DNA from: a virus
Length of the DNA: 28,006 nt
Virus genome (UHGV): UHGV-0119633
Strand: one strand, 5' to 3'
Positions 2,585 to 21,672 of the stretch are shown here, piece by piece. A model generated the notes under the pieces. The model made no database searches and was not told the origin of the DNA. It saw nothing but the letters and a program-made list of their open reading frames with translations. Position numbers and translations under genes: made by a program. Within the stretch, counting starts at the first letter, position 1, and each line of letters opens with the position of its first letter.

Positions 2585-2959
2585 TTACCACTCATCAAAC
2601 TCATGATAATCTTCGTCCTTGCAGCCACCCTTAGCCCACAACAACACCTGTATCAGACGGTCAATATCATACTCTTCAAATATCAAGAATTGTTTGTAAC
2701 CAAGGTAGTCATTAGTATCGCCATCATAAATCTCAAATGTCGCCTTAACAGATTCCTCATCGAACACGCTATCCAGATTCCACGGTTCCAACGGCATAAC
2801 CCCATTAAAAACCCAATCGAAAATATAAAACATAGGATTTAATTCTCTACCATGATCGACCTTAATCGCTAATCTCTCTTCCAAAACACACGGAGTATAC
2901 GGAGCAAATATAGTACCAGCTGGCATACGATTAAATGTTTTAAAATCTACTATCTTCAT
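2585..2959 (-). CDS. hypothetical protein (124 aa)
   Basis: ORF track; RBS AAGGAGGAA upstream. Confidence 0.6.
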   Translation of the reverse strand: MKIVDFKTFNRMPAGTIFAPYTPCVLEERLAIKVDHGRELNPMFYIFDWVFNGVMPLEPWNLDSVFDEESVKATFEIYDGDTNDYLGYKQFLIFEEYDIDRLIQVLLWAKGGCKDEDYHEFDEW

Positions 2960-2962
2960 AAT

Positions 2963-3346
2963 TTATTCCTCCTTATCTTTTTCACACCACATTCCAACAA
3001 GATCACTATACACTTCTAGCATTTTTACATCTGGTTTATCGTGGGTTTTATTATATTCATCAAAATATTCATTGAATGCACAAATACACTTCCAAATATA
3101 CATTTGTTTAGAATCATTTGTTTCATCCATTTCAGGTCTTTTTGCTTCCTCCTTGACATTCACTTTAGCCCAAGCGAAATAATGCTCCATATGCTCTCCA
3201 GGACCAAAGCCAACACAACGCGTGCTAACTGATAACGTAACATCATCGGGTTTTACTTTGTAACCGTTTCGACAACAATAGTCTGCTATAATCTCACAGA
3301 CATCATCTTCTGATAAATTAATAGTAATGTTCTTATTAATATTCAT
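2963..3346 (-). CDS. hypothetical protein (127 aa)
   Basis: ORF track; RBS AAGGAGGA overlapping stop of upstream gene. Confidence 0.6.
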   Translation of the reverse strand: MNINKNITINLSEDDVCEIIADYCCRNGYKVKPDDVTLSVSTRCVGFGPGEHMEHYFAWAKVNVKEEAKRPEMDETNDSKQMYIWKCICAFNEYFDEYNKTHDKPDVKMLEVYSDLVGMWCEKDKEE

Positions 3347-3360
3347 AACTCTAATCCTCC

Positions 3361-3621
3361 TTATCTCACATCAACGTTGCATCCAAAATTAATCAGATAA
3401 TCGGTAGTACAACCCAACACATGAGACATTCTAGCGATAACATCTATTCTAGGGGTACGTTTACATCTCATATAATTAGACATAGCCGACTCAGATATAC
3501 CGATTAATTTAGCCAATTCTTTTTGATTAATGCCGCATAAGTCCATACGGTAATTAAGCTTTTCAACGAAGCGTTTTCGCCATTCAATTTCACTAATAGA
3601 TTTTATAGGAGTCATTTCCAT
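3361..3621 (-). CDS. XRE-family helix-turn-helix DNA-binding protein
   Basis: INQKELAKLIGISESAMSNYMRCKRTPRIDVIARMSHVLGCTTDYL = Cro/C1-type HTH; RBS AAGGAGGA. Confidence 0.7.
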   Translation of the reverse strand: MEMTPIKSISEIEWRKRFVEKLNYRMDLCGINQKELAKLIGISESAMSNYMRCKRTPRIDVIARMSHVLGCTTDYLINFGCNVDVR

Positions 3622-3642
3622 AAAAATATCAATCCTCCTTAC

Positions 3643-3813
3643 TTACTTCTCTTCTTGGTACATTCTCTCTAAAGCAGTTCTAAATACATCAGCAGCACTC
3701 ATACCTGTTGACTTACGAACCTTCTCTAAAATATCTAATTCTTTCCTATTAACACGAACTAGATATCTTGTATCTCTAGGATCTGCTATCGGTTTTCTAC
3801 CTCTCTTCGCCAT
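3643..3813 (-). CDS. small basic/AT-hook RHH-like protein (56 aa, MAKRGRKPIADPRDTRYLVRVNRKELDILEKVRKSTGMSAADVFRTALERMYQEEK)
   Basis: Hand-translated; below ORF-track size cutoff; RBS AAGGGAGG 8 nt upstream; clear paralog of 6290-6493 (RGRP..DPR..Y..R.N..E...LE...K.TGM..ADVFR.ALE..Y). Confidence 0.55.
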   Translation of the reverse strand: MAKRGRKPIADPRDTRYLVRVNRKELDILEKVRKSTGMSAADVFRTALERMYQEEK

Positions 3814-3910
3814 ACATATCGCCTCCCTTCTATGACAGATACCATTAATACGAAAAACAAAAGAAGAGCCTCAACTAAATATCAATCTAGTCAAAGCTCT
3901 CCCACATCAA

Positions 3911-3982
3911 TTAATCTTTAAGATAACCAACTTTATATAAGAATCTTCCTACAACTGCCCAAAACTTCTGTCTGAGTGTCAT
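3911..3982 (-). CDS. possible 23-aa peptide (MTLRQKFWAVVGRFLYKVGYLKD)
   Basis: Strong RBS AAAGGAGGGA 6 nt upstream of ATG, ~30 nt downstream of promoter-like motif D; very short. Confidence 0.2.
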   Translation of the reverse strand: MTLRQKFWAVVGRFLYKVGYLKD

Positions 3983-4007
3983 ATAGATCCCTCCTTTCTA
4001 TTTGGTT

Positions 4008-4040
4008 TCTTTTCATAATAGGCGTTGTTAATATCACGAA
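4008..4040 (-). promoter_or_regulatory. conserved intergenic motif, copy D
   Basis: Minus-strand TTCGTGATATTAACAACGCCTATTATGAAAAG. Confidence 0.3.
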
Positions 4041-4063
4041 AGAAAAAGAGAGAAGAAGTATAT

Positions 4064-4205
4064 CTCAGCTACACGTTTCTCTGCATCCATTTAAAGACAC
4101 ATTCACTGGTCAGTTCCAGTCCCACTAATATACTTTGATGCTACACGTTTCTCCATACATAAGTATGTTCACTGGTCAGTTCCAGTCCCACATCAACTTT
4201 TATTC
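4064..4205. repeat. tandem ~70-bp direct repeat (2 copies) with internal hairpin
   Basis: Both copies share CTACACGTTTCTC and TTCACTGGTCAGTTCCAGTCCCAC (ACTGG/CCAGT stem); located between promoter-like motifs E and D. Confidence 0.55.
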
Positions 4206-4238
4206 TTCTCTCATAATATAAAATGTATTTTTCGCGAA
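4206..4238 (-). promoter_or_regulatory. conserved intergenic motif, copy E
   Basis: Minus-strand TTCGCGAAAAATACATTTTATATTATGAGAGA; directly after terminator 4237-4264. Confidence 0.35.
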
Positions 4239-4264
4239 TAAAAAGAAGAGGCTGTAAAAGCCCC
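4237..4264 (-). terminator. rho-independent terminator (short stem)
   Basis: GGGGC-UUUUACA-GCCUC then UUCUUUUUAUU on minus RNA; after stop of 4274-4657. Confidence 0.4.
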
Positions 4265-4273
4265 TTACTTGTT

Positions 4274-4657
4274 TTACTTAATTTTAATTGAGTCGTATTC
4301 CTCCTTAAATTTATTAAGCTTTTCCGTAAGTTCTTTTAACTCCTCTTCATATCTTTGTTTTACTATTAATGACACTTCGGAATTGTGTTTGTCACATCCT
4401 TCGATTTTAGAGACTCGATAAGCTATCTTTCTGTTCAGTGTTCCTATAGCTTCTTCAAGAGCACCTTCTTTTACCACATCTCTCACGAACTCTATAGTTT
4501 CAGTGTTATTCTTTATCTGTATATGATTCTTACATATAAAGAACGTTACCAATCCTATAGAAACACATGAGACACCGGCAATTATTTTGCCATTGTTGTC
4601 CATAACCACTTCTTTGAAAGACCTCTTTCCTTTCTCTTTAACATCGTGCTTCTTCAT
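4274..4657 (-). CDS. membrane-anchored coiled-coil protein (127 aa)
   Basis: ORF track; RBS AAGGAGG; hydrophobic segment IIAGVSCVSIGLVTFFI; followed by terminator. Confidence 0.6.
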   Translation of the reverse strand: MKKHDVKEKGKRSFKEVVMDNNGKIIAGVSCVSIGLVTFFICKNHIQIKNNTETIEFVRDVVKEGALEEAIGTLNRKIAYRVSKIEGCDKHNSEVSLIVKQRYEEELKELTEKLNKFKEEYDSIKIK

Positions 4658-7272: not shown

Positions 7273-7764
7273 TTAATCGCACCACAACACAATCTGTCCA
7301 AGTTCTCTAGTTCTCTTTACATCTATAACTCTTTGATTTGAGCTTCCTCTCCATTTCAACTGTACATCTCTGAGTTTCTCGACATACGGTCCGTCTACCA
7401 AAACATCAATGTACTCCATAACCGGTAGATCTTTAACCGCTTCATATGTATATCCGGTGTAAAGCCAGATCGTTTTGTTTGGGAAAGATGCTTTTACTAT
7501 TTCGCATAGTGTCAAAATATCCCATCGGTTTCCTTCAAACAACGGATCTCCACCCGATAAAGTCAAACCGGAAATATAATCTTCATCGAGTAGATCTTCG
7601 AGTTCCTCCCAAGCATTTCCATCAAACAACAATCCATCATCAGGGTTCCAAGTAACAGGATTCTGACATCCAGGGCATTCATGATCGCAGCCGGCAACCC
7701 ATAGGACTACACGAAGACCGTCTCCGTTTTTCATATCGTCTTTCGTAATATCATGGTATCTCAT
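7273..7764 (-). CDS. nrdG: anaerobic ribonucleotide reductase activating protein (radical SAM)
   Basis: GCDHECPGC (CxxxCxxC) radical-SAM cluster plus SLSGGDP, IWLYTGY, VLVDGPYV, WRGSSNQ motifs typical of NrdG; RBS GGAGGTGA. Confidence 0.9.
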   Translation of the reverse strand: MRYHDITKDDMKNGDGLRVVLWVAGCDHECPGCQNPVTWNPDDGLLFDGNAWEELEDLLDEDYISGLTLSGGDPLFEGNRWDILTLCEIVKASFPNKTIWLYTGYTYEAVKDLPVMEYIDVLVDGPYVEKLRDVQLKWRGSSNQRVIDVKRTRELGQIVLWCD

Positions 7765-8968: not shown

Positions 8969-9000
8969 CTCGGTTTCCTCCTTTCTAAAAAAGAGAAGCC

Positions 9001-9162
9001 CTAATTGGACTCCTTTTGAGTTACTTCATTCTTTTCGGTGCTATTCTTTTCTTCGTTTTTGTTACGTTTCCCGCTCGCCATATTCAACGCAAATATAACA
9101 GTGGAAACAATACCTGCAATGTAGCTCAGTACGATAATCGCTAAAATCTCTGTGAATGCCAT
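9001..9162 (-). CDS. small membrane peptide (53 aa, MAFTEILAIIVLSYIAGIVSTVIFALNMASGKRNKNEEK...)
   Basis: Hand-translated; RBS GGAGGATTAAATT-ATG; one TM segment plus charged tail. Confidence 0.45.
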   Translation of the reverse strand: MAFTEILAIIVLSYIAGIVSTVIFALNMASGKRNKNEEKNSTEKNEVTQKESN

Positions 9163-9165
9163 AAT

Positions 9166-9846
9166 TTAATCCTCCTTTTTAGATCCGGTGATAAGTTCTG
9201 AATATGGAAGAGTTTCGATCCATCTACAGAATTCTCTCCACTCATCGAGCTTGTGGTTTTTTCTCTGGTGATACATGGCTGCCAGGACTTCATAATTGAG
9301 CATAACAGTACGTTTCTGGTTATAGCTGCTCGGAAGAAGCTGAATCATCTGCCACCAACAGCCTTTGTCTTTAGATTTTAAATAAGATTCACGGCACCAG
9401 TTTAACTGCTCTATTGTGGTATTAAGAACGGATAATGATGCTTTGCATAAATGTTCACAACTAAAATCCTCCAGCGTAAATTCCTTCGCATGAATCTTGT
9501 GCATAGTTGAGCAAGAGTTAGCAACAGTACCGATTTTATAAGTATCGAACTCCTTCCACCAATACAAAGGCGCTGTAATATCCACATACACAGTAATCAT
9601 CCGCATAAATTTACGATGCTCTGTACCAGCGTTCCGAAGTCTTTTCATAAGGTCGAGGTCGTTTGGCCCGATTATAAAACGGCATGTATTACCGCACCAA
9701 TCCGGTTTGAAACCACACGATTTACAAAGACCAGTATCGCATCCGTTACTACTATCACTCTTCTCCCAACTATTCATCGGATTCCGCATACCTCTAATGG
9801 CAGCTTCCCATCCCATAACTTCTACATTCTCAATTTTAATACTCAT
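9166..9846 (-). CDS. ThyX-like (flavin-dependent thymidylate synthase fold) protein, divergent, with Cys-rich insert
   Basis: By-eye alignment to ThyX: VEVMGWEAAIRGMR / TEHRKFMRMITVYVDITAPLYWW / TVMLNYEVLAAMYHQR resemble ThyX core blocks, but canonical RHR motif appears replaced (DTYK) and a CDTGLCKSCG...CGNTC insert is present; RBS AGGAGGA. Confidence 0.4.
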   Translation of the reverse strand: MSIKIENVEVMGWEAAIRGMRNPMNSWEKSDSSNGCDTGLCKSCGFKPDWCGNTCRFIIGPNDLDLMKRLRNAGTEHRKFMRMITVYVDITAPLYWWKEFDTYKIGTVANSCSTMHKIHAKEFTLEDFSCEHLCKASLSVLNTTIEQLNWCRESYLKSKDKGCWWQMIQLLPSSYNQKRTVMLNYEVLAAMYHQRKNHKLDEWREFCRWIETLPYSELITGSKKED

Positions 9847-9858
9847 AATTTAATCCTC

Positions 9859-10602
9859 CTATTCAAGCCAATTGTTATCTAAATAATAAAATCCAATTAC
9901 ACAAGCGATAATTAACACAATCCATACTACCCAAAAGAATATAAGCCACCCGTTTCCGTATTTTAATGTCTCGTACGTTTCATCAATGCTCATATTGTTA
10001 TAGAAATTAGTGTTATCAGGTATGGTTCCGTCTTTTAACCTGGCAAATATAGTTCCTTTGAATTTGGTTGGTGTACCATAATACTTATATCGAACGTCAC
10101 TAGATTCCTTAAGGGTATCGATATAATCCGGTGATGGAATATTGATTTTACTAGACGGAAAAGTAACACCACAAAATATCAATTCTTTGCAGGTCTTATC
10201 CTCGCTTCCAACCCTATCCCATGTCCAGTAGTACTCTGTTCTTGTATGTGTGGTTCTATTTTTGCCAGAACCGGTAGTATAAGTGACAATTCGAGTATGC
10301 ATTGTATATCGCTCTTTCACTTTTTCGACATACATATATTTTCCGTCTATTTCCGGATAAGTAACCGTGTCAACAGCTTTTAGATTTCCATTCACAAAAG
10401 CGTTTCCGACATTGGTCCTCATACCATACTCGAATATATCGGACTCTTTGATTTTTACTGCTTTGTTGTAGATCTCATTCTTATCCATTTGGTGCTCCGA
10501 AATCTTACTAGAAATCAGAACACCAATAAGTAATAGAATGGCTATAATAGAAATACTGGCTAACACTTCCCTTTTAGTTATTTCAATATCATAGTCTCCC
10601 AT
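9859..10602 (-). CDS. membrane protein with N- and C-terminal TM helices (247 aa), LemA-associated
   Basis: ORF track; RBS AAGGAGTAA; hydrophobic VLASISIIAILLLIGVLISS and GWLIFFWVVWIVLIIACVIGFYYL. Confidence 0.6.
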   Translation of the reverse strand: MGDYDIEITKREVLASISIIAILLLIGVLISSKISEHQMDKNEIYNKAVKIKESDIFEYGMRTNVGNAFVNGNLKAVDTVTYPEIDGKYMYVEKVKERYTMHTRIVTYTTGSGKNRTTHTRTEYYWTWDRVGSEDKTCKELIFCGVTFPSSKINIPSPDYIDTLKESSDVRYKYYGTPTKFKGTIFARLKDGTIPDNTNFYNNMSIDETYETLKYGNGWLIFFWVVWIVLIIACVIGFYYLDNNWLE

Positions 10603-10607
10603 ATTAT

Positions 10608-11162
10608 TTACTCCTTGAATAAATCCTGCGGTGCGTCAACTGGAGCATCATAATCCAAATATGTATAATCTTGTGTCTCGTATCCTAATAAACTTAAAAA
10701 TGTTCTTGTCGGGAATTTACGTACATAGCGATTGTATTCTTTTATCTGCTTATTATAGTTACTACGATATTCCGCGATAAGATTCTCTGTAATAGATAAT
10801 TCATTCATTAGTTCTTTATAGTTTGAATCTGACTTCAACTCAGGATATGCTTCAGATACTGCGGTAATAGCTGTCGTCACATTCTCAATGTCTCCTGTTT
10901 TACCTCGGCCTTCCACAATTGACTTAAGAGTCTCTGCTTCGTGTTTATCGTACTGCTTCACACAATCTGCCAGATTCATAACGAGATCTACTCTTCGTTT
11001 TTCCTGAACCTTGATATCAGAATCAGCACTGTTTACTTGTTCTTCTAGAGCAATTGCTTTGTTCTGAGAACTCTGGACTACAAATACACCTAATAAAATA
11101 ACTGCCAGAATACCAGCAGCTACGATTAACATTACCTTCCAATTTTTATTATTTCCTTTCAT
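10608..11162 (-). CDS. lemA: LemA-family protein
   Basis: N-terminal TM then VQEKRRVDLVMNLADCVKQYDKHEAETL...VSEAYPELKSDSNYKELMNELSITENLIAEYRSNYNKQIKEYNRYVRKFP matches LemA family; start moved to ATG 11160-11162 (MKGNNKNW) with AAGGAGA RBS. Confidence 0.75.
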   Translation of the reverse strand: MKGNNKNWKVMLIVAAGILAVILLGVFVVQSSQNKAIALEEQVNSADSDIKVQEKRRVDLVMNLADCVKQYDKHEAETLKSIVEGRGKTGDIENVTTAITAVSEAYPELKSDSNYKELMNELSITENLIAEYRSNYNKQIKEYNRYVRKFPTRTFLSLLGYETQDYTYLDYDAPVDAPQDLFKE

Positions 11163-11338
11163 TTTTTGATCTCCTTTTCTAAATATTTTTTGATTTCTTC
11201 GCAACGTTCTGCATGTTTACAAGTAATGTCTGTATTAGTGCAATATCTACCCATATCGCATTCCAATTCAGCTTTACTAACATACGGATCGAAGTCAGGA
11301 CAATTATGACAATAATCCTCCACGAATAATTTGATCAT
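11159..11338 (-). CDS. small Cys-rich protein (59 aa, MIKLFVEDYCHNCPDF...CTNTDITCKHAERC)
   Basis: Hand-translated; RBS AAAGGAGGAA 6 nt upstream; stop overlaps lemA start (ATGA). Confidence 0.45.
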   Translation of the reverse strand: MIKLFVEDYCHNCPDFDPYVSKAELECDMGRYCTNTDITCKHAERCEEIKKYLEKEIKK

Positions 11339-11407
11339 GTAATTCCTCCTTTCTTTAGTTTACTTATACAAAAAGAAAAAGAGCCCCACAATTGAGACTT
11401 TAATTCT

Positions 11408-11533
11408 CTAAAATATAAGTTCCAAAATTACATTGATGATGCTCACACTGGTCCAAGCAATTGCTCCACCCGCATATAATGCTAATGCAAGTTTTCCTGC
11501 CTCAACCAAGTCTTTCTTAATATTTCTCAACAT
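11408..11533 (-). CDS. hydrophobic peptide (41 aa, MLRNIKKDLVEAGKLALALYAGGAIAWTSVSIINVILELIF)
   Basis: Hand-translated; RBS GGAGGATAAAAGT-ATG; promoter-like motif G 20 nt upstream. Confidence 0.4.
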   Translation of the reverse strand: MLRNIKKDLVEAGKLALALYAGGAIAWTSVSIINVILELIF

Positions 11534-16172: not shown

Positions 16173-16288
16173 TATTTATGAAAGCCGATATCGCCGGCAA
16201 TAGCAAATAAACCAGCAGCTATAATTAATGCAGGTTCACTTGTCGCAAGATACAAAAATATTAATATTCCAGAAATTACCCATCCCAT
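16172..16288 (-). CDS. possible hydrophobic peptide (38 aa, MGWVISGILIFLYLATSEPALIIAAGLFAIAGDIGFHK)
   Basis: Hand-translated; overlaps helicase stop; weak RBS. Confidence 0.25.
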   Translation of the reverse strand: MGWVISGILIFLYLATSEPALIIAAGLFAIAGDIGFHK

Positions 16289-17562
16289 TTACACCACCGC
16301 CTTTCATTAAATTTTCGCTTTTCATGCAGAGCTCTGGATATTGCTAGGTCAATACCACTCCTACTTTTTAGATGATAGTAATATAAATCTATGAATGGAG
16401 AATTAAGTCTATCGATCCTACCCTTTGCCTGGAGTAATGTCTTGTATGAATATGTTTGCGAATAAAATACGATACAGTTTGTTTTAATGCAATTGAAACC
16501 CTCGGCTCCTGCTGAATAATTTACCAGATAAATCCACTTCTCGCTTTCTGGTATAGCATCATGCTGGTGTCCGTTATATTCTGCAATAACCACATCTTCT
16601 CCATAATATAGATTCTTCAAGATATCCAGTTCGTAGTCGAATGAATAGAACACAATCATTCTTGGATGTTGTTCAAATATCTCTAATAGTTTTATCTGGC
16701 GTGATTCATCTGAATTAACGATTCTACGTAGAACATAGCAAAGCCCAGAAGCTTGTTGGATAGGTTCTTGTTTAAAAGGATCAAAACGAGTTCTAATAGC
16801 TTGCTTGTATTTATGGATGTCGTAAGTAGCCGAAATATCAATGTCATGAGGTACCGTATGTCTCTCGAAATCCATATCAATAAGAATCCGATCTCTTAAA
16901 CGAATCAATCTCGTCTCATTACGATAACCTTCAACACTAGGATACTTTGTCCAACGAGAATATATAATGTGCTCTTGCCTGAATTCCGTTCTATTACGAA
17001 AGAATCCATTAGCCACAAATACCGTTTCGTAATCTGACCAATTATCACCTGGACTAGCTGATAGTATGATCCATTCGTTAAATTTAGCTATCTTTAAAAA
17101 AGCTTTACACCATGCGCCTTTACCAGTTAGCTTATCTTCGTCAAATATAAATACAGCATCTCGAACATCTGCATATTTCTTTATGCATTGCCAACTATCG
17201 ATAAATATTTTGTTCCCATATCTAGTCTTTTTAGTATCTGGATCAGGATATAAAAGAAACGGCATCAATTCTTCTTCCCATTCAAGATCATTTTTTTTCT
17301 TTGCTGTGCTGATAATGTATAAATCTGGTGGATTAGGTTTCATTGGTTTGTACTCTTTATTACCTATGTATCCTCCGTTTTTAGAGAAATACCAATACAA
17401 AGCAGTTCTAGATTTCCCAGAACCTGTGCCACCGTTAAGAATGCAACCGCTGAACATACGATCTATAGCCTGCTGTTGATGTGGATAGAGAAAATCCGTT
17501 TTGGTTTGAGTTTTGTTGTAAGAAATAGTATGTCGATCTTTATAGCTCACTTCCAAAATCAC
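16276..17562 (-). CDS. superfamily-2 helicase (DEAD/DEAH-like ATPase)
   Basis: Walker A GTGSGKS, Walker B FIFDEDK, motif III SASPG, motif VI QAKGRIDR; upstream YPHQQQAI; no in-frame ATG near RBS so start is GTG (17562) or TTG (17556). Confidence 0.75.
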   Translation of the reverse strand: MILEVSYKDRHTISYNKTQTKTDFLYPHQQQAIDRMFSGCILNGGTGSGKSRTALYWYFSKNGGYIGNKEYKPMKPNPPDLYIISTAKKKNDLEWEEELMPFLLYPDPDTKKTRYGNKIFIDSWQCIKKYADVRDAVFIFDEDKLTGKGAWCKAFLKIAKFNEWIILSASPGDNWSDYETVFVANGFFRNRTEFRQEHIIYSRWTKYPSVEGYRNETRLIRLRDRILIDMDFERHTVPHDIDISATYDIHKYKQAIRTRFDPFKQEPIQQASGLCYVLRRIVNSDESRQIKLLEIFEQHPRMIVFYSFDYELDILKNLYYGEDVVIAEYNGHQHDAIPESEKWIYLVNYSAGAEGFNCIKTNCIVFYSQTYSYKTLLQAKGRIDRLNSPFIDLYYYHLKSRSGIDLAISRALHEKRKFNERRWCKWDG

Positions 17563-19343: not shown

Positions 19344-19877
19344 TTAAAACTCAAACGGAATTTGTTCTACATCCCCGCCCTGAACAGTAACGCTCTGCAT
19401 TAGCTGTCCAGTCTCTTCGTCGTAAAATAAATCATCCAAGAAATGATCAATGTCATCTTGAACGTCCTGGTCTGCCATTCTCATAACTTCATAGCCTTCA
19501 AGACCGATATGACGACGGAGTTTCTTCAAAACAGTAGCAGTCCATCTTCTGAATTTACGAGCTTCAAGTTTCTTACTAGAATATAAAGCTTCATATATAC
19601 CGATCTCATTTACCGCCAACATCCAACGGTATCTATTTTCCCCTTTTGATCTATCCACCTTTGAAAGGTGATCAGATGATTCGTTATACCTTAAAGGTAT
19701 ATCAGATACGTCTACTCTAACTCTCATCATCATATCCGGATCTAATCTCTGAGATACTTTGAATGTTTTAAGTTCCAAAGCATTACAAATATCTTTCAGG
19801 ATAGCCCACCATTCACCATCCTGCTCGATAAATCTAATATCATATCCCATCCAATTCTCTGTTCTCATTTCGCTCAT
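19344..19877 (-). CDS. Bro-N-like domain protein (anti-repressor-type N-terminal domain)
   Basis: MGYDIRFIEQDGEWWAILKDICNALEL resembles Bro-N/KilA-N pattern; start moved to ATG 19875-19877 with AAAGGAGAA RBS. Confidence 0.5.
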   Translation of the reverse strand: MSEMRTENWMGYDIRFIEQDGEWWAILKDICNALELKTFKVSQRLDPDMMMRVRVDVSDIPLRYNESSDHLSKVDRSKGENRYRWMLAVNEIGIYEALYSSKKLEARKFRRWTATVLKKLRRHIGLEGYEVMRMADQDVQDDIDHFLDDLFYDEETGQLMQSVTVQGGDVEQIPFEF

Positions 19878-19891
19878 ATTATTCTCCTTTC

Positions 19892-20029
19892 CTACCAAAA
19901 CTTCACGTTACGAATCTTTCCACAGATCTTACACCGACATCTAAATATGCCTACTTTAAAACCGCAGTAGTCGTAATAAATATCATGCGGTTTGTCTTCG
20001 AGTTTTTCCCATTCGTGAATATGAAACAT
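19892..20029 (-). CDS. small Cys-rich protein (45 aa, MFHIHEWEKLEDKPHDIYYDYCGFKVGIFRCRCKICGK...)
   Basis: Hand-translated; RBS AAAGGAGAGG 6 nt upstream. Confidence 0.4.
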   Translation of the reverse strand: MFHIHEWEKLEDKPHDIYYDYCGFKVGIFRCRCKICGKIRNVKFW

Positions 20030-20103: not shown

Positions 20104-21672
20104 CTATTTAGCCAAGCCCCTTTCGTTTAGTGCATCCTCAACTGCGGAATATCGATCTGAGTTAAGTTGCTCTAATAAGCACTCTAGCGGATCGGTGTTA
20201 TTACTAAGCACCATATTGGTAATAATCGGACTAAATCCACTTACTAAAGCAACTCCTAGATCGTTCTCTTTTACTGGGATGGTTCCTGTTCTGCTACAAA
20301 TGTTCCAGAATATCAATCTAGGAAGTTTATAGCCGTACTGAGAGTAACGATCTGATATCGTATTAAACAGTGTTTTACTCGGTCTGATATTGCTCCATCT
20401 TGAACCTCCTTCGCAACTAGCACAGCTATCAAATTCCATATCTGATAAGATAAGTATGTTTTTAGGAATGTCGTTCTGTGACATGTTATTGTTGATTGCT
20501 GTTTTGAGAATAAGTTCAAATACAGCTTCGATGTTTGTGTTAGCCACCTCGTTGTATCTCCTGGCAATTTCGATCTTTTCTCTCAAAGATTCTCCGTTAC
20601 TAAGATCTACTAAACGAGGATTCATGCTGAATGTAATATATTTGTCTCTGAATTCACCAGAACTTCTTTCAGAAAAATATATTGCAAGAGCATTGGCTAC
20701 CTCTAAAGCTGTTACACTTGTTCCGCCGACAGGACAGTCCATACTACCCGATCCGTCCGCAACGCAAATTGTGTTACCGTCTCCGTTTACATAATCGGGA
20801 AGTGCTTTCCACAATTCTTCAAGTGTAATGTCATCTTTACCTTTGAGTTTATTCCCGTACCAAAATTCACCCCGATCAAAGTATTTATGTACAATATCAT
20901 GCGGGAATAGTACACCAGCATTGATTTTCGTCTCGCCTTTCTGCAAACTCGCTAAGTAACTACTTCTCCTTTCCTCATCGTTCTTCATAAACGCATTACC
21001 ATATATAATATTGGCTCTTGATGGAACCGCAGAATAATCAATCTTTGACCATTCTTTCTTACACATACTAACTTCCACAACTTTTAAATATGCACGAAGA
21101 TCCGAAAGCATTTTACGATAGGATTTCTCGTTAATAAATAACTTCTGAATCATAAGACGTGCTAGTCGTTTTGTCTCTTTAGACGAAGTGTTTGCAGACG
21201 GCATCCATTTAGCTAATAAAGAAATAGGCTCTCCTAGAGATCTCTTCCTTATATCACTTGTCAACTGTGTAGATACAATTGATACAACGTAGTCTGAAAC
21301 GTCAGTGTCTAATAAACACCATAAATCATCCCATCTACCGTATTCCGGAACCAACGGAATGATTGCCTTTGATATATCGGCATGTTTTTCGGATAGATAC
21401 TTAAGACAATATCTGAATAATCTTCTTTCTCCGAGACCTTCTCGTACATCTCTGGCATAGAACAACCACTTGATAGCAAGCTGTTTGTTTTCGTAGAATG
21501 TCTTTACAAACTTGTCTACGATTTCTCCCTCGTCCATATTTCGCATGGATGTTACTGAAAAGTTGATGTCAAGAAGTTCTTTACCAGTAGTACGGTAACC
21601 AACTGCTCCATTTTCAGTAAGGCTTGTGTTGAATTCATCATTGATTGTTTCTTTCAGATTGTTCATAAACAT
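20104..21672 (-). CDS. vWA-domain protein with MIDAS motif and TROVE/Ro60-like N-terminal region (DUF2828-like)
   Basis: 522 aa; DGSGSM (DxSxS MIDAS) followed by vWA-like layout; N-terminal GYRTTGKELLD and LAIKWLFYARDVREGLGERR resemble TROVE module; RBS AAAGGAGAAAAACT. Confidence 0.6.
   Translation of the reverse strand: MFMNNLKETINDEFNTSLTENGAVGYRTTGKELLDINFSVTSMRNMDEGEIVDKFVKTFYENKQLAIKWLFYARDVREGLGERRLFRYCLKYLSEKHADISKAIIPLVPEYGRWDDLWCLLDTDVSDYVVSIVSTQLTSDIRKRSLGEPISLLAKWMPSANTSSKETKRLARLMIQKLFINEKSYRKMLSDLRAYLKVVEVSMCKKEWSKIDYSAVPSRANIIYGNAFMKNDEERRSSYLASLQKGETKINAGVLFPHDIVHKYFDRGEFWYGNKLKGKDDITLEELWKALPDYVNGDGNTICVADGSGSMDCPVGGTSVTALEVANALAIYFSERSSGEFRDKYITFSMNPRLVDLSNGESLREKIEIARRYNEVANTNIEAVFELILKTAINNNMSQNDIPKNILILSDMEFDSCASCEGGSRWSNIRPSKTLFNTISDRYSQYGYKLPRLIFWNICSRTGTIPVKENDLGVALVSGFSPIITNMVLSNNTDPLECLLEQLNSDRYSAVEDALNERGLAK

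Follow-up and report, generated by a model that had tools for sequence, protein, structure and literature searches.

What does a phage gain from a gene of the LemA family, and why should this gene be coupled to one for a membrane protein? To our knowledge, LemA proteins, which are widespread in bacteria and whose structure was solved years ago (PDB 2ETD), have no assigned biochemical activity, and the role of MamQ in the formation of the magnetosome membrane is the only clear genetic phenotype of any LemA and the only one that ties such a protein to membrane remodelling. The stretch of DNA analysed here, the 28,006-nucleotide virus sequence UHGV-0119633 (henceforth the window), carries a lemA gene followed at once by a gene for a protein with a transmembrane (TM) helix at each end, referred to below as the partner. 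The window is identical to the IMG/VR contig UViG_3300045988_045688 (96.7 kb), and this identity together with the phage genes in the neighborhood bears out the initial annotation, which had taken the pair to be phage-borne. The source is probably a Lachnospiraceae phage; no near-identical DNA was found among GenBank phages. The features of the locus are as follows:

11382–11399, minus strand: terminator-like hairpin 5' of the Cys-rich ORF (consensus scan only)
11159–11338, minus strand: Cys-rich ORF of 59 aa with 7 Cys, whose TGA stop overlaps the lemA ATG as ATGA (11162–11159)
11171–11176, minus strand: Shine-Dalgarno sequence AAGGAG of lemA, 8 nt 5' of the ATG at 11162 (read from the sequence)
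10608–11162, minus strand: lemA, 184 aa; a TM anchor at the N-terminus precedes the helical LemA domain (aa 48–169)
10611–10616, minus strand: Shine-Dalgarno sequence AAGGAG of the partner, within the last lemA codons (read from the sequence)
9859–10602, minus strand: partner gene, PHROG 3886, 247 aa, a single TM helix at either end
8994–9014, minus strand: terminator-like hairpin after a 53-aa TM ORF (consensus scan only)

The open reading frame of lemA extends from 10608 to 11204 (minus strand) and would encode 198 aa if read from a TTG, and 184 aa from the ATG at 11162; the start positions of the homologues in the alignment agree with the latter. The embedding of the partner's Shine-Dalgarno sequence in the last lemA codons, proposed in the initial annotation, is directly readable (AAGGAG, 10616–10611), and it is followed by the lemA stop codon TAA (10610–10608), a gap of 5 nt and the partner ATG at 10602. 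Both are real genes and not chance ORFs, because the partner matches the phrog_3886 HMM over its full length (E-value 3.8e-85, aa 5–247 against positions 5–263 of 263) and has 3018 homologues. The hairpin at 11382–11399 may delimit the local transcription unit on its 5' side, and that at 8994–9014 may mark the end of the unit cys59-lemA-partner-p226-p53. Concerning the Cys-rich ORF, which has no match in Pfam or PHROG, its previously noticed overlap with the lemA start is real, but it does not belong to the cassette, because it lies 5' of lemA only in the source contig, while in one other locus its homologue is found 3' of the partner.

The assignment of the first gene to the LemA family is firm: its product matches Pfam PF04011 with an E-value of 1.6e-30 (106.3 bits, cut-off 26.2, profile positions 3–137 of 149) and phrog_1383 with an E-value of 1.6e-49, and a phmmer search retrieves the 'lemA protein' of T. 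maritima (2ETD) for aa 33–167 (E-value 1.7e-24). The C-terminal tail beyond the LemA domain is conserved and subfamily-specific, with Y161, L169 and F182 invariant in the alignment. Since phrog_1383 bears the label 'virion structural protein', and the same name is used in the RefSeq records NC_029009 and NC_048087, the phage LemA might be taken for a component of the virion. This reading is extremely improbable, given the N-terminal TM anchor, the clear homology to bacterial LemA and the location of the gene outside the structural modules; moreover, the GenBank versions of the same two genomes call the product 'LemA family protein'. The anchor maps as follows:

11070–11135, minus strand: TM anchor of LemA, about aa 10–31 (hydropathy)

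Hydropathy analysis places this single TM segment within aa 6–34, and an N-terminal TM segment is present in all 96 cassette LemAs. In the same 96 proteins the mean number of Lys and Arg residues is 3.03 on the N-terminal flank of the helix vs 1.08 after it, and the predicted orientation is that with the N-terminus in the cytoplasm and the LemA domain outside. Some LemA homologues are lipoproteins: the LemA of Ralstonia carries a lipoprotein signal (LSGC), which also places the LemA domain outside. A published prediction for MamQ and LemA likewise has the C-terminal domain outside (PMC3905215).

How stable is the association of the two genes? Loci were located by single-protein scans and by scans with the LemA alignment. 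LemA directly precedes the partner in 17/17 informative loci found via the partner, and the partner directly follows LemA in 79 of the 80 best genome loci found via LemA alone, the single exception being a contig whose end lies 173 nt beyond lemA. According to independent gene calls, the pairing is kept in distant members (33–36% identity), and it occurs also in C. difficile phage-plasmids and in one Latilactobacillus phage. The two genes are usually separated by 1–12 nt, with values from -4 to +15 nt in 76 of 97 pairs. The two proteins diverge together, their distance matrices being correlated (r = 0.887, Mantel p about 0.001, n = 90); the flanks are not conserved: 551 flanking ORFs fall into 400 clusters, the largest of which is represented in only 18 loci. 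In one locus the cassette is duplicated in tandem. The pairing is apparently obligate, and the comparison shows lemA and the partner to be a mobile and translationally coupled two-gene cassette, inherited as a unit; both products are membrane-anchored. The pair pointed out in the initial annotation is thus kept in about 100 loci, and the partner does not correspond to any known lysis or structural protein. Our literature searches on LemA yielded incidental mentions only, and no experiment or paper on the phage pair was found.

The carriers comprise about 100 phages, prophages and phage-plasmids of Bacillota, ranging from temperate siphophages of about 38 kb to lytic Enterococcus phages of about 150 kb. 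In the window, the cassette is surrounded by nucleotide-metabolism, anti-repressor and helicase genes, with an nrdG-like gene nearby; in other loci it is often found just upstream of genes for a late activator (RinA-like), an HNH protein and terminase, and in the Enterococcus phage EA1 it resides amid metabolic auxiliary genes (NrdD, PnuC, NadR-like and phosphoheptose isomerase). The best 80 genome loci have phage-gene and not core chromosomal contexts. The cassette is placed among early or accessory genes, and not in the lysis or virion modules.

This setting bears on two further explanations. The first is the control of lysis timing, put forward in the initial annotation; the proteins would then act as holin, antiholin or spanin-like regulators. 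Both are small and membrane-bound, and LemA gives a weak match to an Rz-like spanin PHROG (E-value 0.0055). Such a role is disfavoured, and we regard it as highly improbable, because the cassette is never located beside lysis genes in the annotated loci inspected: no endolysin or holin adjoins it there, and its neighbours are early, metabolic or packaging genes, as exemplified by the loci upstream of terminase. Besides, Gram-positive hosts need no spanin, and the Rz-like match spans only the TM helix and the coiled region. The second is a defence or toxin-immunity module of prophages, e.g. an abortive-infection system made up of a toxic membrane protein and a second one that keeps it in check. 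The presence of two linked membrane-protein genes in variable parts of prophages and phage-plasmids would fit this idea, as would the match of LemA to the PADLOC candidate PDC-S35, but the latter is marginal (E-value 5.7e-4, 17.6 bits) and the partner has no match in PADLOC-DB v2. The cassette is, furthermore, present in 22 records of EFDG1-type Enterococcus phages (about 145–153 kb), which we take to be strictly lytic, and it lies outside the lysogeny module; no lysogeny genes were found near it in the 3 Enterococcus phage records examined. A defence module of prophages is therefore unlikely.

The partner contributes the more unusual of the two sequences. Its mapped elements are as follows:

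10507–10563, minus strand: TM1, about aa 14–32 (hydropathy, alignment)
10224–10308, minus strand: core motifs on the long hairpin, Y99-x-x-H102-T-R104 and then Y125-x-x-W128-D129
9883–9951, minus strand: TM2, about aa 218–240 (hydropathy, alignment)
9862–9882, minus strand: C-terminal tail, which carries [DE]-N-x-W-L-[ED] (alignment)

Hydropathy analysis puts the helices within aa 8–37 and 213–246, and exactly two TM helices are present in all 113 aligned family members, in agreement with the topology initially assigned to the 247-aa protein. In the AF2 model (pLDDT 95.1, pTM 0.80), TM1 with a helical stalk (aa 10–46) is followed by a β-rich domain (aa 49–202) containing a long β-hairpin (aa 91–110 and 117–137), a short helix and TM2 (aa 218–240). 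W128 on this hairpin is invariant in 113 sequences; a conserved E-I-T-x-R-E motif precedes TM1 (R11 conserved in 86% and E12 in 87%), F223, W224 and W227 are conserved in TM2, and the C-terminal tail is the most conserved stretch of the whole protein (2.81 bits per column). The conservation of the two short tails (R11/E12 and [DE]NxWL[ED]) suggests that they may form a functional site on the opposite face of the membrane. The mean numbers of Lys and Arg residues in the four TM flanks (2.4, 2.25, 1.69 and 0.82) indicate the orientation only weakly.

The central domain, which the initial annotation had left unplaced, found no place in our searches of Pfam, NCBIfam, PADLOC and PDB either. Among the Pfam matches listed for the partner and 54 family members there was only TM-driven noise (DUF4064, Sigma_reg_N); NCBIfam yielded no match, the PDB yielded no sequence match with either the family profile or the single sequence as query, and a Foldseek search of the PDB with the model yielded none at E-value ≤ 1e-3. 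The top, weak Foldseek matches were β-pore toxins, presumably because of the long hairpin. Since the family has neither a Pfam entry nor a solved structural relative, it is a candidate new domain family. It is common in gut Lachnospiraceae prophages; a homologue search seeded with the partner of an Enterococcus phage gave 3 matches only. Natural fusions of LemA with the partner were sought among the long members of the family and none was found, the long ones being chimeric or truncated assemblies. The name TMEM43 (Pfam PF07787), used in some GenBank records, was considered and rejected, as 1 of 54 members matched, below the threshold (E-value 0.035). The comparison with the 6-TM partner of Streptomyces LemA was negative (hhalign, <1%), and that with a Thermus protein, which is named DUF3137 by PGAP and adjoins LemA, gave an hhalign probability of 0.33%.

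Or perhaps the partner could be a very divergent relative of the GIDE-type domain, the intermembrane domain of MUL1, a mitochondrial E3 ligase of eukaryotes, and the cassette a viral or prokaryotic LemA-GIDE module? This would be a claim about the family only. The two proteins have the architecture of a TM helix, a β-rich domain of about 190 aa and another TM helix in common, one GenBank record calls the Enterococcus phage homologue a 'RING-type E3 ubiquitin transferase', and Foldseek retrieves similar 2-TM ORFans from giant viruses of eukaryotes (E-values 6e-11 to 2e-5). The models of the partner and of MUL1 (the latter with pLDDT 55) agree in the order of their first three secondary-structure elements, and hhalign gives a single local match, in which equivalent elements just after TM1 are aligned (aa 31–78 of the partner and 25–76 of MUL1). 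However, the hhalign probability against 22 vertebrate MUL1 sequences is 0.24%, with a shallow MUL1 profile (Neff about 2), hmmsearch gives less than 10 bits in both directions, and PF12483 is absent among the Pfam matches listed for the window protein and the 54 members (the best 25 of 69 families at E-value ≤ 1), with at most one weak match among the members. A reconstructed human MUL1 sequence, which served as the positive control, matches Pfam GIDE with an E-value of 3.8e-24 and is 94% identical to real orthologues. On balance, kinship with GIDE is rather doubtful.

What, then, might the cassette do? Our preferred reading, offered tentatively and as a possibility that falls short of an even chance, is that an outward-facing complex of LemA and the partner serves as an accessory envelope module in lytic growth, whose likeliest effect would be to make the membrane refractory to attack. 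LemA would keep its N-terminus inside the cell and expose its helical bundle on the outside of the cytoplasmic membrane, and the partner would be inserted as a helical hairpin with the short conserved N- and C-terminal tails in the cytoplasm and the β-rich domain facing outward. Made in fixed proportion, the two proteins could assemble at the membrane-wall interface into a putative complex, which their linkage suggests; both ectodomains are acidic, so that there is no charge complementarity between them, which counts against a complex. As a dispensable accessory module expressed together with the early or middle genes, the cassette would alter the state of the host envelope. The membrane of the infected cell might thereby be made refractory to further attack, by blocking either the entry of DNA from competing phages, as T4 Imm/Sp and lactococcal Sie do, or premature collapse of the membrane. 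Membrane remodelling and superinfection exclusion, two possibilities raised in the initial annotation, are conjectures of this kind. The cassette would in this sense be a phage-adapted version of the bacterial envelope modules that combine LemA with a membrane partner.

In temperate Gram-positive phages, the classical Sie genes are part of the lysogeny module; the cassette lies outside it, an observation that counts against exclusion.

The same bacterial modules suggest another function, namely that the phage supplies its own auxiliary version of the host LemA pair, which sustains membrane-protein quality control or stress tolerance during host shut-off and plays no part in conflict. Bacterial LemA has an M48 (HtpX-like) peptidase and TPM/YgcG proteins among its partners, and the metabolic neighbours in EA1 and the nrdG-like gene near the cassette in the window would suit such a purpose. 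In F. columnare, LemA is induced under envelope stress, being up together with membrane-homeostasis genes in the sppA mutant (PMC13236525). On the other hand, the partner is not homologous to the DUF3137, 6-TM and MUL1-GIDE proteins tested (hhalign <1% each), the contexts of the best 80 loci are those of phage genes, and the rapid divergence, the scattered occurrence and the duplication in tandem are more reminiscent of conflict genes. A purely homeostatic role is thus conceivable but somewhat doubtful. A broader conjecture, which at present must be called improbable, is that LemA-PHROG 3886 represents an unrecognised and widespread envelope system of Gram-positive phages, in which the partner, with a fold that has no solved relative and is possibly a viral or prokaryotic counterpart of MUL1/GIDE, would form with LemA a trans-membrane complex that excludes phages or shields the cell from membrane-directed abortive-infection effectors.

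Whichever role applies, the phage pair is a compact and apparently dispensable LemA system in culturable phages of tractable hosts, among them the EFDG1-type Enterococcus phages, Lactococcus garvieae phage PLg-TB25, Latilactobacillus sakei phage TMW 1.46 P1 and the C. difficile phage-plasmids, and for this reason the phenotypes of deletion and ectopic expression should be easy to score. If the reading as an envelope system is true, it would open the LemA family to functional study for the first time; should the cassette control superinfection or membrane integrity, this would matter for the competition of phages in the gut and for how enterococcal phage therapy is designed. In addition, the partner family, with at least 842 clusters at 50% identity, offers a candidate new domain family.

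Among the known systems, MUL1/GIDE (PF12483) resembles the partner in the succession of TM helix, β-rich domain and TM helix, with both termini facing one side of the membrane and the domain facing the opposite side, but the phage protein shows no sequence or profile similarity to it and has no RING domain. T4 Imm and Sp, lactococcal Sie2009 and S. thermophilus Ltp are small, dispensable and fast-evolving membrane proteins or lipoproteins that act on the outer side of the cytoplasmic membrane. The cassette is like these superinfection-exclusion proteins in being phage-encoded, small, membrane-bound and fast-evolving; it differs in the absence of homology and in being a pair, whereas they are single proteins. 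MamQ (NCBIfam NF040966), which is required for the formation of the magnetosome membrane (PMC3905215), has the LemA domain in common with the window protein (E-value 1.7e-20), but the latter is not a MamQ equivalog, because it scores 73.4 bits against a cut-off of 250 bits; MamQ has no partner of the PHROG 3886 type, and the window has no magnetosome context. A close parallel is provided by the bacterial LemA (PF04011/COG1704) operons, in which the first gene likewise encodes a LemA domain behind an N-terminal anchor and the next gene, separated by a few nucleotides or overlapping, a membrane protein whose domain is extracytoplasmic. The earlier supposition that LemA is coupled to membrane partners in bacteria held in six plasmid records, where LemA resides beside YgcG/TPM, M48 peptidase, DUF3137 and a 6-TM protein. 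In contrast to these operons, the phage cassette has a partner without detectable homology to the YgcG/TPM, M48 and DUF3137 partners, the phage LemA subfamily is paired only with PHROG 3886 in every locus checked, and the cassette travels on phages, prophages and phage-plasmids and not in core chromosomal contexts.

All genes of the window lie on the minus strand according to the ORF calls, and the features around lemA are arranged as follows.

Features in and around the cassette (lemA and its downstream partner gene)
11408-11533, minus strand: 41-aa small ORF flanking the cassette region, C-terminal half hydrophobic
11399-11382, minus strand: terminator-like hairpin (consensus scan only)
11159-11338, minus strand: Cys-rich ORF (cys59), 59 aa with seven cysteines; its TGA overlaps the lemA ATG as ATGA
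10608-11162, minus strand: lemA, 184 aa from ATG; AAGGAG 8 nt before the ATG
10616-10611, minus strand: Shine-Dalgarno AAGGAG of the partner, inside the last lemA codons (sequence reading)
9859-10602, minus strand: partner gene, 247 aa; 5 nt between it and lemA
9166-9846, minus strand: p226, 226-aa Cys-rich protein (phrog_6721, function unknown, E 6.9e-86)
9001-9162, minus strand: p53, 53-aa small ORF flanking the cassette region, predicted TM helix
9014-8994, minus strand: terminator-like hairpin (consensus scan only)

This layout agrees in every respect with the initial annotation of the gene pair (both ORFs, the Shine-Dalgarno sequence in the last lemA codons and the Cys-rich ORF overlapping the lemA start), and hydropathy analysis places one TM helix at either end of the 247-aa protein, as had been described. 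According to the consensus scan, the two hairpins may bracket a five-gene unit, cys59-lemA-partner-p226-p53.

The first gene of the pair encodes a bona fide LemA protein, judging by its matches to Pfam PF04011 (E 1.6e-30, 106 bits against a cut-off of 26 bits), to PHROG 1383 (E 1.6e-49) and to the solved structure of T. maritima LemA (2ETD in the PDB, E 1.7e-24). It is not the magnetosome protein MamQ, as its score of 73 bits with the NCBIfam MamQ model falls far short of the 250-bit cut-off. Hydropathy reveals a single N-terminal TM helix, and across 96 LemAs from cassettes the flank on the N-terminal side contains a mean of 3.0 Lys+Arg vs 1.1 in the flank past the TM helix, on which basis the N-terminus is predicted to be cytoplasmic and the helical domain extracytoplasmic. 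The lipoprotein signal LSGC of a Ralstonia LemA and the published topology prediction for MamQ/LemA (PMC3905215) are both consistent with the LemA domain lying outside.

The full length of the partner aligns with PHROG 3886, a family of unknown function (E 3.8e-85). This family is large, with 3018 homologues in a collection clustered at 90%, and has 842 clusters at 50% identity. No Pfam family matched the window protein or 54 diverse members beyond TM-driven noise, one of the 54 matching TMEM43 (E 0.035), and neither NCBIfam, PADLOC nor sequence searches of the PDB yielded a match; the central domain that the initial annotation could not place is thus indeed without a known relative in these resources. 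Exactly two TM helices are present in 113/113 aligned members. Conserved positions include R11/E12 directly ahead of TM1, G66, G72 and V80, the motifs Y99-x-x-H102-T-R104 and Y125-x-x-W128-D129 (with W128 invariant), R171, and F223, W224 and W227 in TM2, and conservation peaks in the terminal motif [DE]-N-x-W-L-[ED] (2.81 bits per column). The AlphaFold2 model built from the family alignment is confident (pLDDT 95.1, pTM 0.80) and predicts a long helix comprising TM1 plus a stalk (aa 10–46), a beta-rich domain (aa 49–202) with a two-stranded hairpin of ~20 residues (91–110 and 117–137) that bears the core motifs, and a short helix followed by TM2 (aa 218–240). Foldseek comparison of this model with the PDB returned no match at E <= 1e-3. 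Among viral models, it matched a 269-aa phage protein (A0A1X9IGF6, E 7e-21), equal in length to the partner homologue of Lactococcus phage PLg-TB25, and ORFans that lack annotation, have two TM helices and come from Klosneuvirus-like giant viruses (E 6e-11 to 2e-5, TM-score 0.36–0.47). Four of the latter in BFVD (210–270 aa; A0A3G5ACS0, A0A6N1NH03, A0A1V0SLC3 and A0A3G5AD21, from Satyrvirus, Tupanvirus, Klosneuvirus and Hyperionvirus) match the partner model with E 6e-11 to 7e-7 and TM-score 0.42–0.47 at only 8–12% identity.

The same two genes are named inconsistently across GenBank/RefSeq phage records: LemA appears as 'virion structural protein', 'putative repressor', 'LemA protein' or 'hypothetical protein', and the partner as 'RING-type E3 ubiquitin transferase' (one GenBank record, for the Enterococcus homologue), 'transmembrane protein 43' (others) or 'putative transmembrane protein'. 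The GIDE domain (PF12483) of the mitochondrial E3 ligase MUL1 has the same TM-domain-TM architecture as the partner, and a relationship was therefore tested. The human MUL1 query was checked by its match to Pfam GIDE (E 3.8e-24) and by 94% identity to real orthologues. Since the partner alignment reached hhalign probabilities below 1% whether compared with MUL1 by itself or with 22 vertebrate orthologues, and hmmsearch in both directions scored below 10 bits, GIDE membership is not supported by sequence. As weak hints, the best local hhalign match aligns equivalent post-TM1 elements, and the first three secondary-structure elements are ordered alike in the partner and MUL1 models (the latter with pLDDT 55).

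The pairing of lemA with the partner is conserved essentially without exception, as three independent lines agree. Starting from the partner, a Pfam-confirmed LemA gene adjoins it upstream in Enterococcus phage EA1 and Lactococcus phage PLg-TB25, lies 255 nt upstream in Lysinibacillus phage LC76P1 (with a small ORF in between) and is upstream in 14 IMG/VR contigs, i.e. in 17/17 informative loci including the three GenBank phages. Starting from LemA, a genome-collection scan seeded with its alignment gave 538 relatives, and in 79 of the best 80 loci the next gene matches the partner HMM; the contig of the remaining locus stops 173 nt past lemA. Finally, Pfam labels precomputed on independent gene calls place PF04011 directly upstream of two of the most divergent partners (33–36% identity), and the pair is present in C. 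difficile 46–48-kb plasmids and in Latilactobacillus phage TMW 1.46 P1. The intergenic distance is -4 to +15 nt in 76/97 pairs and exceeds 100 nt in only 3, and LemA and partner pairwise distances are correlated (r = 0.887, Mantel p ~0.001, n = 90). The association put forward in the initial annotation is thereby confirmed, and the interpretation given there is supported in part; the partner belongs to a family of unknown function, not to one of known structural or lysis proteins.

The neighbours of the cassette are not conserved (551 flanking ORFs form 400 clusters, the largest found in 18 loci). The Cys-rich ORF is not part of the unit, as it precedes lemA only in the source contig (96.7-kb IMG/VR contig UViG_3300045988_045688, identical to the window); a related 89-kb viral contig has a homologue on the downstream side of the partner (L005, 4754–4930), so this small ORF has moved relative to the cassette. 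The p226 gene starts 12 nt past the partner stop and has no Pfam or PDB match; its association with the cassette is loose, with homologues at most three genes away in 8 other loci. The 53-aa and 41-aa ORFs were not found in loci other than the source contig. One contig binned as Fibrobacter sp. (L075) bears two tandem cassettes (416–1716 and 2959–4425).

Genes near the cassette in the window are early or metabolic.

Annotated genes near the cassette
7273-7764, minus strand: anaerobic ribonucleotide reductase activase-like (nrdG-like), phrog_626
16276-17562, minus strand: DNA helicase, phrog_62
19344-19898, minus strand: Ant-like anti-repressor
20104-21672, minus strand: 522-aa 'RNA-binding protein', phrog_850, E 2e-139

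The closest relatives occur in genomes of Lachnospiraceae and other Clostridia (e.g. Blautia, Roseburia, Dorea, Hungatella), more distant ones in Listeria, Enterococcus, Lactococcus, Latilactobacillus, Lysinibacillus and Clostridioides. The bacterial loci are prophages or phage contigs, because the genes downstream are those of phages (terminase large subunit, transcription regulators, anti-repressors, a MazG-like protein, occasionally integrase). Cassettes closely resembling the Lachnospiraceae type in L021, L023, L033, L044, L066, L075, L078 and L079, loci binned in Bacteroides, Phocaeicola, Treponema, Prevotella, Fibrobacter or Alistipes MAGs, probably lie on mis-binned phage contigs, and these names are therefore unfit for host assignment. 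Where temperate phages and phage-plasmids are annotated, the cassette closes the early region, directly before late activator, HNH and terminase genes, and in Enterococcus phage EA1 (~150 kb) it lies amid NrdD, PnuC and NadR-like genes. On a 36.8-kb contig (L108), a Tad2-like anti-defence gene (1719–2207; PF11195, anti-Thoeris) and a ParB-like gene precede a divergent cassette by ~1.2–3 kb, with the Tad2-like gene at ~1.2 kb.

Taken together, the cassette is a translationally coupled, co-inherited and mobile unit of two genes whose products are both anchored in the membrane, and phages of Bacillota carry it in their early or accessory regions. Lysis timing, proposed in the initial annotation, is unlikely, as no cassette among the loci inspected adjoins lysis genes; none lies within a structural module either, and position and distribution likewise make a role in the virion or a module of the defence or toxin type less likely. 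In the mechanism we propose, the LemA helical domain and the partner beta domain would both lie outside the cytoplasmic membrane, with the two short conserved tails of the partner on the cytoplasmic side; the proteins would assemble into a complex, and during lytic growth the module would condition the infected cell's envelope. Its patchy distribution, rapid divergence, tandem duplication, presumed dispensability and accessory-gene location lead us to favour, tentatively, a role in exclusion of competing phages or in protection against premature membrane failure. Somewhat less probable, but the main rival, is a plain auxiliary function in envelope homeostasis that copies host LemA modules. The cassette is directly testable, as it is carried by several culturable phage-host pairs.

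Both families were already known as PHROGs, and LemA has been annotated in several phage genomes. The literature search found no paper on the pair, and where a LemA gene of a phage came up the mention was incidental; in one report phage LemA was equated with the Pseudomonas LemA/GacS sensor kinase, which is in fact unrelated (PMC9865981). As far as we could find, the obligate cassette, its breadth and a partner without a solved structural relative are previously undescribed.

The surroundings of LemA in six plasmid or chromid records include different membrane proteins. Directly 3' of LemA lie YgcG and a TPM-domain protein in Ralstonia, an M48 metallopeptidase in Bacteroides, DUF3137 in Thermus, a 524-aa 6-TM protein in Streptomyces and the PHROG 3886 family in C. 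difficile, whereas L. gasseri has a small 1-TM ORF ~150–230 nt downstream and a TPM-domain gene ~650 nt upstream. According to hhalign, the partner shows no similarity to DUF3137 or to the Streptomyces 6-TM protein. Phage LemA cassettes, too, can have a partner other than PHROG 3886, as LemA is followed by other proteins in an uncultured 635-kb phage (LR745206; L106, 2992–5135) and in locus L107 (2932–4425), one of 538 aa with an N-terminus that is TPM-like by eye, the other of 304 aa with hydrophobic segments at both ends. Since bacterial and other phage LemA genes thus have differing partners, the cassette of the window represents a general 'LemA + membrane partner' arrangement in a variant specific to phages.
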